Positions 14,527 to 35,122 of a stretch of 64,000 bases of DNA are shown here, one piece after another (position 1 is the first letter of the stretch; each line of letters begins with the position of its first letter). The position numbers and the translations under genes are program-made. This stretch comes from an uncultured Candidatus Saccharibacteria bacterium (GTDB taxonomy: Bacteria; Patescibacteriota; Saccharimonadia; Saccharimonadales; JAUPVS01): positions 8,752-72,751 of the forward strand of contig CAYWVZ010000003.1 of NCBI GenBank assembly GCA_964462215.1. The letters run 5' to 3'. The notes under the pieces are model-generated. The model worked only from the letters and a program-made list of their open reading frames with translations, did not search any database and was not told the DNA's origin.

Positions 14527-15129
14527 TTATTTTTTGGGTTTGGGTGGGGTTTTGATGACATCATCGACAATGCCGTATTTCTTGGCTTCGTCGGCGGTCA
14601 TCCATTTGTCGCGTTCCATGTCTTCGTGGATTCGGGCATGCTTTTGGCCGGTGTTTTTGGCCATGATTTCTTCAAGGAGCTTCTTAACACGCAGGCTTTC
14701 GCGCAGGTCGATCTCTTGGTCGGTGACTTTGCCGCGGGTGCCGCTACTGGGCTGATGGATCATGACGCTGGCGTTGGGCAAAATAAAGCGCTTGCCTTTG
14801 GTGCCGCTACTGAGCAGAAAGGCTGCAGCACTGGCTTGCACACCAATTCCAACGGTTTGAACGTCGGACTTGATGTAGTTCATGGTGTCAAAAATTGCCA
14901 AGGCATCGTAAACGCTGCCGCCCGGGCTGTTGATATACAGGTAAATGTCTTTGCCGGGGTTCTCGTTGTCCAGGAATAATAGCTGGGCGGTAATCAGGTT
15001 GGCGGTGTGCGGGTTGACGTCTTCGCCCATAAAGATGATGCGGTCTTTGAGCAGGCGCGAGTAGATGTCGTAAGCGCGCTCCATGCGGCCTTCGGTTTCG
15101 ATAACAGTCGGGATCAAAACGGATTTCAT
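14527..15129 (-). CDS. clpP: ATP-dependent Clp protease proteolytic subunit
   Basis: 200 aa with full-length ClpP similarity ([11 protein letters not shown]..., [13 protein letters not shown]). Confidence 0.97.
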
Positions 15130-15135
15130 GCTGCT

Positions 15136-15174
15136 ATGATAGCGCTGCTAGCACTCTCGTGTCAAGAGTGCTAA
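15136..15174 (-). promoter_or_regulatory. CIRCE-type inverted repeat (HrcA operator consensus) embedded in the clpP promoter
   Basis: Minus strand reads TTAGCACTC-TTGACACGA-GAGTGCTAG, matching TTAGCACTC-N9-GAGTGCTAA. TTGACA in the spacer acts as the -35, with 18 nt to TATCAT (15136-15141), which lies 6 nt before the ATG. Confidence 0.75.
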
Positions 15175-16454
15175 TATTTGGTAGCGTATTCCGTTAATTT
15201 CTTGATGGTTTTGTCGGTGAGGATACGGTTGGCGATGTCGCCGCGGGCTTCGGGTTTGTCGAGCTCGGCCAGCATCTGCGGGTCTTGGTATTGGGTCTTG
15301 AGCATTTGCAATTGGGTTTCGAGTTCTTCGGGAGTAACCATGATGCCTTCACGGTCGGCCACTTCGCTTAAGACCAGGCCGATTTTAACGCGGGCTTCGG
15401 CTTTGACGCGATTTTTGGCACGGTGCTCCGCTTCGGTGACACCTTCTTCTTTGAGGTGTTCTTCCCAGGTTTGGCCGCGATACATCAGGTTTTGGCGTTC
15501 CTGGCGTTCGGCGGCGTCAAGCTGCTCGTCGATCAGGCTATCCGGTATGGCCACCTTGCTTTTGGCGGCAATACCTTCGATGAGTTCCTGTTCGAATTGG
15601 CGGTCAACCTCATTTTGGCGCTCGGCCATCAGCTGTGTCTTGATGTCTTTTTTGAGTTCGGCCAGGGTTTTGAACGGTCCGGCTTGCTGGGCAAAGGCGT
15701 CGTCGGCTTTAGCCGTTGCCAGCTCTTCGACTTTGCTGACACTAACGGTAAAGGTGACTTTTTTGCCGACCAGCGCCTTGACGCCGTAGTCTTTGGGAAA
15801 CGTCAGGGTAAACGACTTTTCGTCGCCGGCTTTCATGCCGATGACATTATCTTCAAAGCCCGGGATAAAGGTGTTGCTGCCCAATGCTAGCGGGTAGTCC
15901 TTACCCTCGGCACCGTTGACCGGCTGGCCTTTGTCGTCCACACCCTTAAAACTAAGCGTCACACGGTCGCCGGCTTTGGCAGCCCGTTCAACCGTTTTAG
16001 CTTGAGCCAGACGCTGCTGCAAAGACTTGACAACTTCGGCAATGTCTTCGCTAGTTACTTCGGCTTTAGCTCGCGCCTTTTTTATCTTCTTATAGTCCGG
16101 TAGTGTGACTTCGCCCACAACCGGTACAGTGGCCTCGAACTCCAGCGTAGTGAACGGTACGAACTTTTTGACAGAGATTTCCGGACGGGCCACCGGCCGC
16201 AGGTTTTGCTGCTCGGCGGTTTGGACGTAAAACTGGTTGATGGCTTCTTCGACAACCTCAGTTTGCAGACGGCTTTGGTCGATACTTTTTTCGACCAAAG
16301 CCTGCGGTGCTTTGCCGGGGCGAAAGCCAGATAGCCTAACGTCTTGTCCGAGTTTTTGCACCACTTGCTGCTTGATTGGGCTCAAATCGGCCTCGCCGGC
16401 CGTAAAGGTTAGGGTAACTTGGGTGGGTGAGTTGGTAATCTTTTTTACGTGCAT
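15171..16454 (-). CDS. tig: trigger factor
   Basis: GFRPGKAP ribosome-binding signature, FKBP-type middle domain, tig-clpP order. Start set at MHVKKITN. Confidence 0.93.
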   Translation of the reverse strand: MHVKKITNSPTQVTLTFTAGEADLSPIKQQVVQKLGQDVRLSGFRPGKAPQALVEKSIDQSRLQTEVVEEAINQFYVQTAEQQNLRPVARPEISVKKFVPFTTLEFEATVPVVGEVTLPDYKKIKKARAKAEVTSEDIAEVVKSLQQRLAQAKTVERAAKAGDRVTLSFKGVDDKGQPVNGAEGKDYPLALGSNTFIPGFEDNVIGMKAGDEKSFTLTFPKDYGVKALVGKKVTFTVSVSKVEELATAKADDAFAQQAGPFKTLAELKKDIKTQLMAERQNEVDRQFEQELIEGIAAKSKVAIPDSLIDEQLDAAERQERQNLMYRGQTWEEHLKEEGVTEAEHRAKNRVKAEARVKIGLVLSEVADREGIMVTPEELETQLQMLKTQYQDPQMLAELDKPEARGDIANRILTDKTIKKLTEYATKY

Positions 16455-16590
16455 AAGTGTGTACTCTAACAGATTGCGGCCGGTTTGGCGAGTGTTTCGG
16501 CTACGAGTAGTTCTCATTACCCCTGTTAACTAGCCACATGGTACCATTACCGGCATTGTCAAGGGCTAAGCGACCCCTGTGAAAAAGATA

Positions 16591-22713: not shown

Positions 22714-24750
22714 TTAGTTTAGGTTTGTAATGGCTCTAAGTGCCTTAACACGTTCGTATAACTCTTTATAGTGTAGCAAATCTTCGCCTTGGTCGATATA
22801 GGCCTGAGCCGCCTGGCGGGCCCGGGCAATTAATGCAAAGTCGGTTAGCTGAGCGATGCGCAGGTCAAGCGCGCCATGCTGAAAGGTGCCGTAGATAGCG
22901 CCCGGGCCGCGGATTTCCAGGTCCAGCTCGGCCAGTTCAAAGCCGTCATTGCTTCGCTCCAACGCTTGCAACCGCCGGCTTGGCGCTTGGGCGTCGCCCA
23001 GCATCAGATAGCAGTAGCCCTGCTGGTCGCTGCGACCCACCCGGCCGCGCAGCTGGTGGATTTGCGCCAAGCCGAACCGCTCGGCGTTCTCTAGCAGCAT
23101 GACACTGGCGTTCGGCACGTCCACACCCACCTCGATAACTGTCGTCGAAACCAAAATGTCCAGCTCGCGCTCGGCAAAACGCCGCATGACGGCCGTCTTT
23201 TCATCGGCCTTAAGCTTGCCGTGTAACAGCCCTACCCGCCAATCTTTAAAATCCCGCGTAGCTAATTCTTCATAGATTTTCTCGGCCGAGCGAGCCTGCA
23301 ACAGGTCAGAGTCGGCGATTAGCGGCGCTACCACAAACATCTGCCGTCCCTGCTTCAGCTCTTTTTGTATGGTTTTGTATAGTTCGGCGCGGGCGTGCGG
23401 TGAAATAATCTTTGTGATAATCGGTTTGCGGTTGCGCGGCTTGCTGTCGATGATAGTCACGTCCAGTTCGCCGTACAGGGTTAGCGCCAGGCTGCGCGGA
23501 ATCGGCGTGGCCGTCATATTTAGGACGTGCGGCATATGGCCGGCCTTGGCTTGCAGTTTTTTGCGGTGTTCCACGCCGAAACGGTGTTGCTCGTCGATAA
23601 TCACCAGCCCGAGCTTGTGCATATCGACTTTCTCTTGAACCAAGGCGTGCGTACCGACGATAAACCGGATCTTGCCCTCTTTAATAGCAGTGTGGGCGCG
23701 CTTTTTGGCCGGCGGCTTGAGACTGCCTACCAGCAGACCGACTTGGTCGGCGTAGCCGAGCGGCTCCAGTAAACCGTGGACGGTTTCGGCATGCTGGCGC
23801 GCCAGTAACTCCGTCGGTGCCATTAGTGCCACCTGGAAACCTTGCTCCATAGCCATGAGTGCCGCCATGGCCGCCACCACGGTTTTGCCCGACCCCACGT
23901 CGCCTTCCAGCAAGCGGTTCATCGGCTGGCTTTTTTGCATATCCAAATACATCTGCCAAACGGCCTTGCGCTGGGCGTCAGTCAGCTTAAATGGCAGGTG
24001 GCCGACAAACTCCTTAGCCAATGCCTCCTTGAACGGAATCTCGAGCGCCGTATCTTGCAGCAATTCATACTTATTGAGCAGGCTGGCCAGGCTTAGTTCG
24101 AAGATTTCGTCAAAGCCCAAACGGTACCGCGCCCGCTCCAACTGCTCGTCAGAGTCAGGAAAATGAATCGCCCGCCACGCCTCAGAGCGACCCATCAGGC
24201 CATATTGCTCAACCAGCCAGGCCGGCAAAATTTCGGGTAACCGGTCAACGAGCGGAATAACGTTGCGCAGCACCCGCCGGATCTGCACCGACGTCAGACC
24301 TTTGGTTTCACGATATTTGGGAACAATCCGCGCCGTATGCACCGGAAAATCACTAACCAGCTCGATTGACGGGTTCATGATGGCGAAACGTTGGCGGCTT
24401 AATTCGTATGTACCTGTAATAAAGTACTCCGTGTCGCGTTTGGTTTGCGTTTCACGGTACGGCTGGTTAAACCAAACCAGCCGTACGCTGCCCCGCCCGT
24501 CGCTAGCCACTGCTTCGGTAACGTGCATGCCGCGCCGCACGTAGCGGCCCTTGATATTTTTGATTGTGCCGCGCACCGTCACTGCACCGGGCCGCAGCAC
24601 ATCGGTCGTTTGGATATGCGAATAGTCGTCGTAGCGGCGCGGCACGTTCAGCAACAGGTCCTGCACCGTCTGCAAGCCAAGCGCCGCGAATTTAGCGGCC
24701 AGCGCCTCGCCAACCCCCTTCACGTCCTGCAGTGGACTCCGTAATGTCAT
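22714..24750 (-). CDS. recG: ATP-dependent DNA helicase RecG
   Basis: OB-fold wedge N-terminus, Walker A GDVGSGKT, DEQHRFG, 678 aa. Confidence 0.95.
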   Translation of the reverse strand: MTLRSPLQDVKGVGEALAAKFAALGLQTVQDLLLNVPRRYDDYSHIQTTDVLRPGAVTVRGTIKNIKGRYVRRGMHVTEAVASDGRGSVRLVWFNQPYRETQTKRDTEYFITGTYELSRQRFAIMNPSIELVSDFPVHTARIVPKYRETKGLTSVQIRRVLRNVIPLVDRLPEILPAWLVEQYGLMGRSEAWRAIHFPDSDEQLERARYRLGFDEIFELSLASLLNKYELLQDTALEIPFKEALAKEFVGHLPFKLTDAQRKAVWQMYLDMQKSQPMNRLLEGDVGSGKTVVAAMAALMAMEQGFQVALMAPTELLARQHAETVHGLLEPLGYADQVGLLVGSLKPPAKKRAHTAIKEGKIRFIVGTHALVQEKVDMHKLGLVIIDEQHRFGVEHRKKLQAKAGHMPHVLNMTATPIPRSLALTLYGELDVTIIDSKPRNRKPIITKIISPHARAELYKTIQKELKQGRQMFVVAPLIADSDLLQARSAEKIYEELATRDFKDWRVGLLHGKLKADEKTAVMRRFAERELDILVSTTVIEVGVDVPNASVMLLENAERFGLAQIHQLRGRVGRSDQQGYCYLMLGDAQAPSRRLQALERSNDGFELAELDLEIRGPGAIYGTFQHGALDLRIAQLTDFALIARARQAAQAYIDQGEDLLHYKELYERVKALRAITNLN

Positions 24751-30241: not shown

Positions 30242-31588
30242 TTACGACTCCAAAAATTGATTAAGCGCGTCACGAACAGTGGTGACGCCCTTTAGCAGGG
30301 TTGGTTGCTTACCGCCTCTGACGACCGGCCCGATAGCCGCCTTAAAGCCCAGTTTTTTGGCTTCTTGCACCCGTTTATCAATAAACGGTACGTGGCGCAC
30401 TTCGCCCGACAGGCCGACTTCGCCGAAGACAACGGCATTTTGCTTAAGCTGCAGACCACGGGCGGCCGAACCGATGGCCATGCAGATAGCCAGGTCTGCC
30501 GCGGGTTCCGTAATCCGGATACCACCGACAATATTGATAAAAATATCCTGGTCGGCCAAACTGAGTTTGGTGCGACGCTCCAGCATAGCCACCAGCAGAT
30601 TGATACGGTTAAGGTCGATGCCGCTGGCCGTGCGCTTAGGATACCCGTACGAAGTTTTATTAACCAGTGCCTGCACCTCTACCAGGATGGGGCGCGAGCC
30701 TTCCATGGTAGCCAACACCACCGAACCGTCACTAATCTGCCGTTCGGCCAGCAATGCGGCAGAAGGGTTCTTAACGGGAAACAAGCCCTTGTCTTGCATT
30801 TCAAAGATTGCTACTTCGTTGGTAGACCCGTAACGGTTCTTGACGCCGCGCAGCACCTTAAAGCCGCCGTAGCGGTCGCCCTCCAGCTGTAATACCACGT
30901 CAACGACATGTTCTAATACTTTAGGGCCGGCTATCGAGCCCTCTTTGGTAACATGGCCGACCAGAATAAGCGCCGTGTTGCTTTGTTTGGCAGCCGCTGC
31001 CAGCAAGTGGGCGCTGTTGGTTATTTGGCTGACACTGCCCGGCCCCGAGCTGATAGCCCCGCAACTAACAGTTTGAATTGAGTCAACTACCACCAACGTA
31101 TGGGCGCCCTCAGCGATAGTAGCAGCGATATCGTCAGCACTGTTGCTGGTGGCAATCATCAGGTTTTTGGCGCTGACGCCTAACCGTTCGGCCCGCAAGC
31201 CGACTTGGTGGGCTGATTCTTCACCGCTGACATACAGTACGGATTGCTTGGCGGCTAAGGCGCTAGCTACCTGCAACAGCAGAGTGCTTTTGCCGATGCC
31301 GGGCTCACCGGCCAGCAAGCTGACACTGCCGGCCACAAAACCGCCGCCCAAGACAGTGTCCACGTCCACCAAGCCGGTTGGCAGCCGGTGAGCCCGGTCC
31401 TTGCCGGCAACTGCCGTCAGCGTAGCAGACCGCAGTTGCCGGCCGCCTGAGACGATCTGTTGCGGCTCCACCGACAATTCTTCTTCCAGGGTGTTCCATT
31501 CGCCGCAAACGTGGCACTTCCCTGCCCACGTGGCCGATTGGGCGCCGCAATTCCGGCAGACATAACGGACAGCCCCTTTCTTACTCAT
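30242..31588 (-). CDS. radA: DNA repair protein RadA/Sms
   Basis: N-terminal CxxC...CxxC zinc finger, Walker A GEPGIGKST, KNRYG motif, Lon-like C-terminal domain. Confidence 0.95.
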   Translation of the reverse strand: MSKKGAVRYVCRNCGAQSATWAGKCHVCGEWNTLEEELSVEPQQIVSGGRQLRSATLTAVAGKDRAHRLPTGLVDVDTVLGGGFVAGSVSLLAGEPGIGKSTLLLQVASALAAKQSVLYVSGEESAHQVGLRAERLGVSAKNLMIATSNSADDIAATIAEGAHTLVVVDSIQTVSCGAISSGPGSVSQITNSAHLLAAAAKQSNTALILVGHVTKEGSIAGPKVLEHVVDVVLQLEGDRYGGFKVLRGVKNRYGSTNEVAIFEMQDKGLFPVKNPSAALLAERQISDGSVVLATMEGSRPILVEVQALVNKTSYGYPKRTASGIDLNRINLLVAMLERRTKLSLADQDIFINIVGGIRITEPAADLAICMAIGSAARGLQLKQNAVVFGEVGLSGEVRHVPFIDKRVQEAKKLGFKAAIGPVVRGGKQPTLLKGVTTVRDALNQFLES

Positions 31589-32559
31589 TCTGTCTCCTGA
31601 GGCTGCAAACGGCTATCTATGGCTTTTACTAAGTCCCGCTCTTCAATTACCAGCTGGTTGCGTTCATTGACTAGCTGGTTATAGGTTTCAACCTGGGCAC
31701 GAGTCGCTGCCACCACGGCGTTATATTGGCGCACCAAGACGTTAAAGTGGCCGACTCCGGCGTTATAACCTTGGTAGTTGCCAGCCGCCAGCATTGCGTC
31801 GAGCAGCTGGCGTTCGGCCTGCAAGGCCGTGTCGCGGGCTGCTAAGTCTGTTTGGTTGGCGTCAATCTGTTGTTTTAGCGCATCCATCTGAGCATCATAC
31901 TCGGCGACCCGCTGTTTGCGCGAAGTGAATTCCTGCTCGTAAGCATTCAGATAGGCTACCACCTGGGCGCGATCGGTGAAATATTGCCGGTAGTAGGTTT
32001 CGAGTTCGGGCGGCAGCTCGGCCACTTCGGTACCTAAAATAGAGTGGAGTTCATTAAAAACATCGTCACCGGCCTGGCGGTAGCTGTCGACATTAGCGCG
32101 GATACGCGGATTGGTTACACTGGCATATGCTTTTTCCAGCAGGGCGTTGACCCGCCGGCGCTCACTGTCGCTCAAGCGCTGGTAGGCTACATGCAGCATT
32201 TCGTGAGCCGCTGTAACTTGTTTAATCCCCTGTAAGCGCGGGTCCTGTACATCATACAGATAAATGCCCTGGTTGGTGACATAGCAGCCCAGCACGATAG
32301 TCTGCTCGTGGCCGTGGCAGTTTTGGTTGAAAGCCTCTTTATCGTCCAGTTCGGGGTGGAAGACATAAAATAAGCGCTGAGCCTTCGGTGTCATAGTGGT
32401 GTCAGCGGCTAACTGAGCGACCGCCGGCGGCGCCTGGTAGCCGCGCAACCGCCACCAATCGAAGATGGTTTGGCGCTGCCAAAAGCCGACAGCCACCGCT
32501 GCCAACACCAGCAGAGGTATGACTAACCCAACAACCCGTGAAGATTTATGCTGCTGCAT
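31585..32559 (-). CDS. membrane-anchored HExxH (putative zinc metalloprotease) protein with a C-terminal coiled coil
   Basis: N-terminal TM helix, AAHEMLHVAY motif, Q/A/L-rich heptad C-terminal half. 4-nt overlap with radA. Confidence 0.45.
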   Translation of the reverse strand: MQQHKSSRVVGLVIPLLVLAAVAVGFWQRQTIFDWWRLRGYQAPPAVAQLAADTTMTPKAQRLFYVFHPELDDKEAFNQNCHGHEQTIVLGCYVTNQGIYLYDVQDPRLQGIKQVTAAHEMLHVAYQRLSDSERRRVNALLEKAYASVTNPRIRANVDSYRQAGDDVFNELHSILGTEVAELPPELETYYRQYFTDRAQVVAYLNAYEQEFTSRKQRVAEYDAQMDALKQQIDANQTDLAARDTALQAERQLLDAMLAAGNYQGYNAGVGHFNVLVRQYNAVVAATRAQVETYNQLVNERNQLVIEERDLVKAIDSRLQPQETE

Positions 32560-32577: not shown

Positions 32578-35067
32578 TTATTCGGCAGCTGCGCTATAGG
32601 CAAGTGTTTTGCCGCGGGCGCCCACCTGGACGATTTCGCCTTTTTGGTAGGCCTCATCCAAAACCTGCAGGGCGATATGGTCCTCGATAGTATCTTGGAT
32701 CAGGCGCCGCAGCGGCCGCACGCCGTTGTGGGCATCATAGCCGTTTTCCAGCAAATACTGCTTGGCGCTGGCGGTCACCTGCAAACCCAGGCCGCGCTTA
32801 ATCAGGCGCTGGCGTAATTCATCAAGCTGCAAGTCCAAAATTTTCAGGACGTCTTTTTTAGTTAGAGCCCGGAAGACAATTACTTTATCGATACGATTGA
32901 GCAGTTCGGGCCGCATCATTTTTTTGAGTTCGTCCTGGACTTTGTCTTTATTGCTGGCATGCATGGCGTCCAGGTCTTTGAGTTCGTCTTTGGCGGTGGC
33001 ATGGAAGCCAAGCGAGGCCTCTTTTTGCAACTTATCGGCACCGAGGTTGCTGGTCATGATGATAATAGTGTTGCTGAAGTCGATTTTACGGCCCTTAGCG
33101 TCAGTCAGGACACCGTCCTCCAGGATCTGCAGCAACATATTAAAGACTTCGGGGTGGGCTTTTTCGATTTCGTCGAACACCACTAGGCTATAGGGCTGCC
33201 GGCGGATTTTGTCGGTCAGTTGGCCGCCGTCATCGTAGCCGACGTAACCAGCCGGCGCGCCAACCAGCCGCGAGGTGGTGTGTTTTTCGCTGAATTCACT
33301 CATGTCAATTTTGATCATGGCGTCTTCGCTGCCGAAGAATTCGCGGGCCAATACCCGGCCGAGTTCGGTTTTGCCGACACCCGTCGGACCCAAGAACACA
33401 AACGAACCAATCGGGCGGCGCTCGCTGCTAATACCGGAGCGGTTACGGCGGATAGCCTTGGCAACAGCCGTAACGGCCTCGTCCTGGCCGATAATGTGCT
33501 TGCCCAGCTGTTTTTCCAGATTAAGCAGGTATTTGGCTTCGGAACGGATAACTTTGGTGACCGGCACACCGGTGATACGCGACACGACATCCGCTACGTC
33601 TTCGCTGGTCATAGCAATCTTTTTACCGCTCTTGGTGCTGGCTTTGAGGTCAGCCAGCTCTTTGGTTACCTGGCTGGCGCGGGTTTTGTACTGGGCGGCT
33701 TTTTCGTAGTCGCCGTTATCGGCGGCTTCTTCCATACGGACGTTTAGTAATTTGAGCTCTTTTTGGAACTTGCGGACATCGGGCGGCGTCTTGCCTCTGT
33801 CGACGCGCAAGTGGGCAGCGGTTTCGTCCATCAGGTCAATGGCTTTGTCGGGCATGTAGCGGTCGGCAATGTAGCGTTTAGCCAATGTTACGGTGTCATC
33901 CAAGACTTCGTCGCTGACTTTGACGTTGTGATATTGCTCATAATGTTTGCGTAGGCCTTTCAGAATAGCCAGGGTCTCGGCCGGATTGGTTTCGGGTACC
34001 TGGATAGGTTGGAAGCGGCGCTCCAGGGCGGCATCTTTTTCGATGTGCTTGGTGTATTCGTCGGTGGTAGTAGCGCCGATGACTTGGATTTTGCCGCGAG
34101 CCAGGGCTGGTTTGAGGATGTTACCGGCGTCCATGGCGCCTTCGGCGGCACCGGCACCGACAATTAAGTGCAGTTCATCAATAAAGACAATGGTTTTGTC
34201 GTCGTTTTCGAGTTCGGTCATAACTTTTTTGAGGCGCTCTTCGAACTCACCGCGGTACTTGGTGCCGGCAATCATACCGGCCAGGTCAAGGATAACGATA
34301 CGCTTGTCGAGCAGGCTGTCGGGCACGTCTTCGGCGATAATGCGCTGCGCCAAACCCTCAACTATCGCTGTCTTGCCGACGCCCGGTTCGCCGATGAGCA
34401 CGGGGTTATTCTTGGTGCGGCGGTTTAAAATGGTAATAACCCGCCGAATTTGCGGCTCGCGGCCGACCACCGGATCGAGTTTACCGCCGCGGGCTTGCGC
34501 CGTCAGGTCGGTGCCGTAAAAGTCCAGCGCGCCCTTGCCGCGTTTTTTGCCGGCCCGGCGCTGAAAACCGGTTTGGCCGCCGCCAGCGCTGCTGTCTTCG
34601 TATTGTTGGCGGTTCAAGAATTGTTCCAACTCGTTGAGCAGGTCATCAACACTAACATTCATGTCACGCAACAGCACGGTGGCCCGGGCGTTTTTTTGGC
34701 TGAGGATACTGTAGAGGATGTGTTCGGTGCCGCAGAATTCCTGGTTGAAGTTCTGAGCCACATCGAAAGCCATGCGCAGGGTCAGTTTGGCCGTCTCGCT
34801 CAGACCTTTGGCGCCCATATTTAGGACCAGGGTTTTTGGTGTCAGATTAAGAGCCAGCCGGGCCCGGTCGAGCGTTACGCCGGCACCCTCCAGCAACTTG
34901 GCGCCCATTGAAGAATCCTGAGCCAATACGCCTAGCAGCAGGTGCTCCGTGCCCACGTAGGCACTGCCAAAATTGCGAGCAATGGCGTCGGCATGCTTGA
35001 GACTCTGCACCGCGTTGTCCGTCAAGTGATTGAGAAACTCTTGAAAATCGGCGTTACTGGGCATCAT
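32578..35067 (-). CDS. clpC: ATP-dependent Clp protease ATP-binding subunit ClpC
   Basis: Two Clp_N repeats, Walker A GEPGVGKT and GPTGVGKT, a UVR-like linker, 829 aa. Confidence 0.95.
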
Positions 35068-35076
35068 AGTACTTTT

Positions 35077-35115
35077 ATGATACTAGTGCTAGCACTCTCG
35101 TGTCAAGAGTGCTAA
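35077..35115 (-). promoter_or_regulatory. second CIRCE-type inverted repeat embedded in the clpC promoter
   Basis: The 29 nt at 35087-35115 are identical to 15146-15174. Same TTGACA-18 nt-TATCAT arrangement, with the -10 lying 9 nt before the ATG. Confidence 0.75.
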
Positions 35116-35122
35116 ATCATCG

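Follow-up and report, generated by a model that had tools for sequence, protein, structure and literature searches.

The protease genes clpP and clpC lie 20 kb apart in the 64-kb stretch of Saccharibacteria DNA analyzed here (64,000 nucleotides; below, the window), and they share one operator-promoter design, as their common sequence, -10 hexamer, and spacing indicate. In both cassettes, the arms of a CIRCE element flank the -35 hexamer TTGACA of the promoter. CIRCE and its repressor HrcA form a textbook heat-shock system, and we consider it likely (probability roughly 0.85) that the two elements are HrcA operators fused to sigma-70-type promoters, which would work by occlusion of the -35 hexamer as part of a consolidated proteostasis regulon.

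The window has a G+C content of 54% and carries core housekeeping genes (rpsJ, tuf, fusA, rpsG, rpsL, clpP, tig, hisS, recG, tyrS, radA, clpC, nusA, dnaE, gatCAB, and uvrB). Pfam annotation took in nearly all of its larger ORFs; two ORFs were recognized by eye, not by Pfam, as rpoC and rpoB. Named relatives that come closest to its ClpP and ClpC carry annotations as Candidatus Saccharibacteria, Saccharimonadales, or Patescibacteria, and the top 120 ClpP homologues are all close environmental relatives. The features at the two clp promoters are as follows.

15148..15174, minus strand: CIRCE-1, predicted HrcA operator, with left arm TTAGCACTC at 15174..15166, spacer TTGACACGA at 15165..15157, and right arm GAGTGCTAG at 15156..15148
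15165..15160, minus strand: -35 hexamer TTGACA of the clpP promoter, wholly inside the CIRCE-1 spacer
15141..15136, minus strand: -10 hexamer TATCAT of the clpP promoter, separated from the -35 by an 18-nt gap and ending 6 nt before the clpP ATG
14527..15129, minus strand: clpP, 200 aa, downstream of CIRCE-1 (Pfam CLP_protease, E = 8.5e-76)
15171..16517, minus strand: tig (trigger factor), upstream of clpP (Pfam Trigger_N, FKBP_C, and Trigger_C)
35089..35115, minus strand: CIRCE-2, the same 27-nt sequence as CIRCE-1, between nusA and clpC
35106..35101 and 35082..35077, minus strand: clpC promoter, TTGACA and TATCAT with an 18-nt gap, 11/12 consensus positions
32578..35067, minus strand: ClpC-type AAA+ ATPase, 829 aa, downstream of CIRCE-2 (Pfam Clp_N twice, AAA, AAA_lid_9, UVR, AAA_2, and ClpB_D2-small)

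A preliminary description of this DNA had reported a perfect CIRCE between tig and clpP. The arms of CIRCE-1 agree with the consensus TTAGCACTC-N9-GAGTGCTAA at 17/18 positions, just as it had counted, but "perfect" slightly overstates such a match. Pfam confirmed both flanking genes, and an independent sigma-70 scan, in which the clpP promoter scored 11/12 consensus positions, agreed with the earlier placement of TTGACA in the 9-nt spacer and of TATCAT 18 nt downstream, 6 nt before the start codon. This 18-nt gap is one above the optimum, which counts against the reading as an HrcA-controlled promoter. The CIRCE spacer is exactly 9 nt in CIRCE-1 and CIRCE-2, as in all related sites. clpP cannot start earlier than the ATG at 15129, since an in-frame TAG lies 18 nt upstream of it, and the stop codon of tig (TAG, 15173..15171) falls within the left arm of CIRCE-1. 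At its other end, tig may truly start at an ATG at 16454; the gene call on locus L121 gives 427 aa.

CIRCE-2 had been missed by the preliminary description. With up to 3 mismatches to the consensus, the 64-kb window contains two sites, both at Clp promoters, and zero matches were found at the same threshold in 100 dinucleotide-preserving shuffles. Each site overlaps the -35 of a sigma-70-type promoter of a Clp gene. Identity between the two copies spans 29 nt (35115..35087 versus 15174..15146; sequence TTAGCACTCTTGACACGAGAGTGCTAGCA), after which both cassettes have 5 variable bases and then a common TATCATA. Among loci selected by the motif, a perfect CIRCE also stands upstream of Saccharibacteria ClpC homologues of 45 to 77% identity (L058, L028, L023, L038, L010, L003, L110, and L060).

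Two genes follow clpC closely.

31585..32559, minus strand: 324-aa ORF, 18-nt gap after clpC
30242..31588, minus strand: radA, with a 4-nt overlap with the 324-aa ORF

Judged by spacing only, both are possible co-transcribed members of a clpC operon. A separate TATAAT stands 7 nt ahead of the ATG of the 324-aa ORF, which gave no convincing Pfam match, the single match (AAA_13) scoring 22.9 bits against a cutoff of 36. In Firmicutes, a clpC operon has the order ctsR-mcsA-mcsB-clpC-radA-disA, which the order clpC, 324-aa ORF, radA resembles minus ctsR, mcsA, and mcsB.

Whether the palindrome is kept upstream of clpP in relatives, a point raised in the preliminary description, was assessed in 80 metagenomic clpP loci chosen by ClpP protein similarity alone, 76 of which had readable upstream sequence. 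A CIRCE was sought within 200 nt upstream of clpP and was present in 72/72 loci with ClpP identity of at least 69%, with up to 2 mismatches in 71 and as a symmetric 4-mismatch variant (CTGGCACTC...GAGTGCCAG) in 1; at about 60% identity, it was found within that distance in 0/4 loci. All 67 non-redundant related clpP sites have TTGAC inside the spacer, and the arm deviation seen in the window (final A to G) recurs in 6 of these 67. A TAnnnT hexamer lies 16 to 18 nt from the -35 in 69/69 non-redundant sites (17 nt, n = 52; 18 nt, n = 15; 16 nt, n = 2), and tig is upstream of clpP in 60/69 related loci. When sequences were anchored on the element, the conserved parts were limited to the arms, the TTGAC in the spacer, and the TAnnnT -10; the neighboring 3' end of tig has no nucleotide-level conservation among related loci. 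That the arms are kept while neighboring bases drift argues for ongoing selection on the arms themselves and not on the promoter hexamers alone.

The -35 occurs in two registers within the spacer (L122-L197), TTGACnnnn at 36 sites and nnnnTTGAC at 31, the latter reading TTGACG. The -10 shifts along with the -35, and thus the operator moves by 4 bp relative to the promoter with the -35 still enclosed. CIRCE spacers vary from genome to genome. Cassettes of the same genome have identical spacers, with TTGACACGA at both window sites and TTGACACTA at hrcA and nusA-clpC of MAG CAYZYH01, a hint of concerted evolution that comes from two genome pairs alone.

The cassette is not confined to clp genes. 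A motif scan of one genome per species, requiring CIRCE arms and TTGACA at the start of the spacer, returned at least 120 loci, and most of the matches listed are from Saccharibacteria or other Patescibacteria. The other taxa among the matches listed are Chloroflexi, mitis-group streptococci, Fervidobacterium, Dialister, and a few gammaproteobacterial MAGs. Among the matches listed, the product of the first gene downstream is distributed as follows.

DnaK: 47 loci
HrcA-like protein: 32 loci
Hsp20: 13 loci
ClpB/ClpC: 11 loci
ClpP: 3 loci, one of them the window's own sequence (a Logan contig)
GroES: 2 loci
DnaJ: 1 locus

The rest of the matches listed lie ahead of a few other genes. In a census that disregarded the spacer and allowed up to 2 mismatches, 263 CIRCE sites were found in 200 loci, 203 of them with TTGAC in the spacer, and the target classes were unchanged from the motif scan. 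Because the same cassette precedes dnaK, hrcA, dnaJ, hsp20, clpC/clpB, clpP, and groES, the chaperone and Clp protease arms of proteostasis appear to share one repressor in Saccharibacteria and the wider Patescibacteria. The consolidated regulon that had been suggested from the clpP site is therefore supported at the level of the lineage. groESL is the sole constant member of the HrcA/CIRCE regulon (PMC545781).

Several of these loci have arrangements of their own. In the Saccharibacteria MAG CAYZYH01, the cassette occurs both at hrcA (L111) and ahead of nusA-clpC (L084). At L084, some 190 nt separate it from nusA, and clpC, which comes after nusA, lacks a CIRCE of its own; from this layout, the operator appears to have shifted across nusA between lineages having the nusA-clpC order. 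The dnaK gene of Saccharibacteria usually has two tandem CIRCE elements (L005-L007, L011, L014, L063, and many others), the first enclosing the -35 and the second downstream of the -10, in the leader. This second element often reads TTGGCACTC-N9-GAGTGCTAA and is without TTGAC. In two gammaproteobacterial MAGs (L106 and L107), an RpoH-like sigma factor follows a CIRCE that has TTGACA in its spacer, and CIRCE at rpoH is known in Geobacter (PMC545781). In three Chloroflexi MAGs (L009, L016, and L100), what follows the same combination is a small protein of the Zn_ribbon_8 (FmdB) type. In locus L076, a 1-mismatch CIRCE at about position 258 (+) lies 34 nt upstream of an ORF that resembles Fe/Mn superoxide dismutase, its N-terminus having been judged by eye; the ORF may likewise belong to the regulon of this oral-type Saccharibacterium.

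HrcA-like proteins of Patescibacteria are about 230 to 240 aa long (L024, L042, L054, L118, and about 25 other loci). Four were tested against Pfam, and they pass the threshold for the HrcA C-terminal domain (PF01628), which is matched over profile positions of about 80 to 215 only; for the HrcA wHTH domain (HrcA_DNA-bdg, PF03444), 1/4 scored above threshold and a second fell just below. The N-terminal 80 residues of one HrcA-like protein align to Thermotoga maritima HrcA (1STZ) with E = 4e-16, the QPHTSAGRIPTDKGYR segment included. A DNA-binding domain conserved in this way fits the unchanged operator consensus, and the position of hrcA behind its own cassette implies autoregulation. The ORFs annotated in the 64-kb window include no hrcA, groESL, dnaK, ctsR, or ClgR-like gene, and it is from the relatives that we infer HrcA to be the probable cognate repressor of the window's two sites.

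That gap in the window's gene list, and the fact that reduced genomes do lose regulators, would suit an account in which hrcA has been lost and the elements are relics, or are bound by a regulator other than HrcA, so that the sites now serve as strong constitutive promoters. We regard this as unlikely. The two window copies are identical over 29 nt and have arms near consensus, the arms are conserved in all 72 of the closer relatives amid drifting neighboring bases, pointing to continuing selection on them for repressor binding, and an HrcA whose DNA-binding domain is well conserved is found widely in the lineage.

A transcription start at the A of the clpP ATG would put the operator at about -45 to -19. 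By inference from characterized HrcA systems, an HrcA dimer on the operator would keep RNA polymerase off the -35 hexamer, and by analogy with the same systems, HrcA activity would need GroEL. Proteotoxic stress would then titrate GroEL and release HrcA, and clpP and clpC would be derepressed together with the chaperone genes. The HrcA of this lineage is about 100 aa shorter than characterized HrcAs, and therefore GroEL dependence cannot be assumed.

Transcription of clpP is predicted to start at or next to the A of the ATG, and for clpC, whose ATG lies 9 nt past the -10, a 5' untranslated region of 0 to 3 nt is predicted. Since the -10 ends only 6 nt (clpP) and 9 nt (clpC) before the start codon and no Shine-Dalgarno sequence is present at either gene, both mRNAs are predicted to be leaderless or nearly so. 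Spacing between the -10 and the clpP start is bimodal among relatives: it is at most 10 nt in 42/69 loci (mode, 7) and 17 to 44 nt in 23/69, several of these with visible GGAGG-like leaders, and the remaining 4/69 have long leaders of 97 to 151 nt. A TAnnnT hexamer ending 6 to 8 nt before the start, without a Shine-Dalgarno sequence, was seen at about 8 to 10 of the 37 window genes checked (start codons at 24750, 32559, 46760, 47400, 62176, and 16454, also 15129 and 35067); these include recG, the 324-aa ORF after clpC, a pilB-like ATPase, a CAP-domain protein, uvrB, and possibly tig. On that count, leaderless mRNAs look to be a genome-wide trait. None of the top-ranked papers in our literature search pairs "leaderless" with CPR terms.

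If the mRNAs are leaderless, the operator lies outside the transcript and is expected to act on DNA only, which argues against a role at the RNA level for these two genes. The inverted repeat might instead act mainly as RNA, as a 3' hairpin that terminates or stabilizes the tig and nusA transcripts, its likeness to CIRCE being secondary. Folded as RNA, the element does form a 12-bp stem (-19 to -20 kcal/mol; z-scores, -3.7 and -4.7) that begins at or just past the stop codons of these two genes. However, the sense strand has no U-run after the hairpin, there are no sense-strand terminator calls at either site, and the lone plus-strand call (15149..15173) is the palindrome in antisense reading; an intrinsic terminator was rejected on these grounds, the hairpin being present without a sense-strand U-run. 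What is conserved also goes beyond mere pairing, to the exact CIRCE bases and to a -35 and -10 at fixed spacing, and elsewhere the same element stands before dnaK, hrcA, and hsp20, behind unrelated upstream genes. We therefore consider a mainly RNA-based function very unlikely.

A dispersed repeat or mobile promoter cassette that came to lie upstream of clp genes by chance is more improbable still. Such a reading could draw on the 29-nt identity of the two copies, their common -10, and the identical spacers of the L084/L111 pair. Against it, there are just two copies in 64 kb, each exactly at the promoter of a proteostasis gene, the site upstream of clpP is orthologously conserved in relatives with differing spacers, and no flanking repeats or transposase genes were found. 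A generic repeat was rejected on the same count of two copies, both at promoters, and within the 64-kb window this speaks against the scattered repeat that the preliminary description had named as a possible refutation.

We also looked for the operators of other Clp regulators. The CtsR box (tandem heptad RGTCAAANANRGTCAAA) has 4 weak matches in the window versus 4.2 expected, none near clpP or clpC; the gene upstream of clpC is nusA and not ctsR, mcsA, or mcsB, and no CtsR-like protein is found among the window ORFs. For ClgR, we scanned with the core of its box, CGCYNANRGCG. Allowing up to 1 mismatch, 0 of 33 window matches fall in the clp intergenic regions (15130-15170 and 35068-35122). 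With these 33 matches, the ClgR-like pattern WCGCYNANRGCGW is overrepresented at 1 mismatch, versus 18.3 expected and 0/100 shuffles reaching 33, and this excess is probably a codon or composition effect.

A wider proposal can be framed from these observations: that a truncated HrcA of about 235 aa is the single master regulator of protein quality control across Saccharibacteria, probably in much of Patescibacteria, and with echoes in Chloroflexi, acting through a fused cassette with the -35 in the operator spacer in two registers 4 bp apart, the -10 at 17 to 18 nt downstream, and mostly leaderless mRNAs. We would give this proposal about even chances. If true, the heat-shock circuit would be a minimal one, its chaperone and Clp protease arms either never split or merged again. 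In published transcriptomes of TM7x, a cultivated Saccharibacterium, most chaperones are higher at initial host encounter and clpB and clpP are higher in stable symbiosis; the TM7x transcriptome papers do not mention hrcA for TM7x. Such opposite changes indicate that co-regulation is not strict in every member or condition, and TM7x either is without clp cassettes or has additional controls.

Gene regulation in Patescibacteria/CPR is almost unstudied, and in our full-text searches neither CIRCE nor HrcA was linked to Saccharibacteria or CPR by any paper. The cassette gives the group a concrete regulon to test, in which a single repressor and a single operator-promoter design would serve about eight classes of target gene, the Clp protease among them, and it would offer a ready stress-inducible promoter for newly tractable Saccharibacteria. 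The mechanism is not new: a known operator, repressor family, and logic are extended to a lineage without described regulation. Its distinctive traits, on the sequence evidence, are a -35 that occupies the spacer in either of two registers, transcripts predicted to be leaderless, and an HrcA of reduced length. The placement of clpP under CIRCE had been interpreted in the preliminary description as a sign of rewiring, and this interpretation is supported: each of its statements about the sequence holds, and on its own refuting conditions the palindrome is kept in relatives, the window has two copies only, and HrcA homologues exist in the lineage. But the novelty claimed for it was somewhat too high, given that HrcA control of protease or Clp genes is on record in Mycoplasma pneumoniae and lactic acid bacteria.

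Compared with the class I system of Bacillus subtilis (dnaK and groESL operons), the Saccharibacteria system has the same operator consensus, TTAGCACTC-N9-GAGTGCTAA, a repressor of the same HrcA family, implied autoregulation of hrcA, and dnaK and groES among its targets. The architecture differs. In B. subtilis the operator sits around or downstream of the transcription start, whereas here the -35 lies inside the operator spacer and the transcripts are predicted to be leaderless. Classical HrcA is about 340 to 360 aa long, compared to about 235 aa in the Patescibacteria lineage. The targets differ as well, in that clpP and clpC of Bacillus belong to a separate CtsR regulon (PMC6305308) and here have CIRCE at both promoters.

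Streptococci and lactobacilli come closer in having clp genes with CIRCE or under HrcA: the HrcA and CtsR regulons of streptococci overlap (PMC6305308), and clpL of Lactobacillus gasseri is HrcA-regulated according to work cited in PMC3192767. Unlike the window, streptococci have CtsR too; here neither promoter has a CtsR box and no ctsR lies beside clpC. Oenococcus oeni likewise places chaperone and Clp genes under a single repressor, but as a mirror image with CtsR in the place of HrcA, all of these genes being under CtsR with no hrcA and no CIRCE (PMC6305308).

A striking parallel in gene arrangement is M. pneumoniae, whose HrcA controls dnaK, dnaJ, clpB, groESL, lon, pepA, and pip, and where a CIRCE separates lon from the tig gene ahead of it (PMC7737663), the same order as at clpP here. 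Both would be cases of a small genome with one HrcA over chaperones and a quality-control protease. They differ in that the M. pneumoniae protease is Lon and not ClpP/ClpC, in that Mollicutes are not Patescibacteria, and in that PMC7737663 describes no -35 within a CIRCE spacer. Saccharibacteria would provide a second independent case, after Mollicutes, of HrcA presiding over proteases together with chaperones in small genomes.
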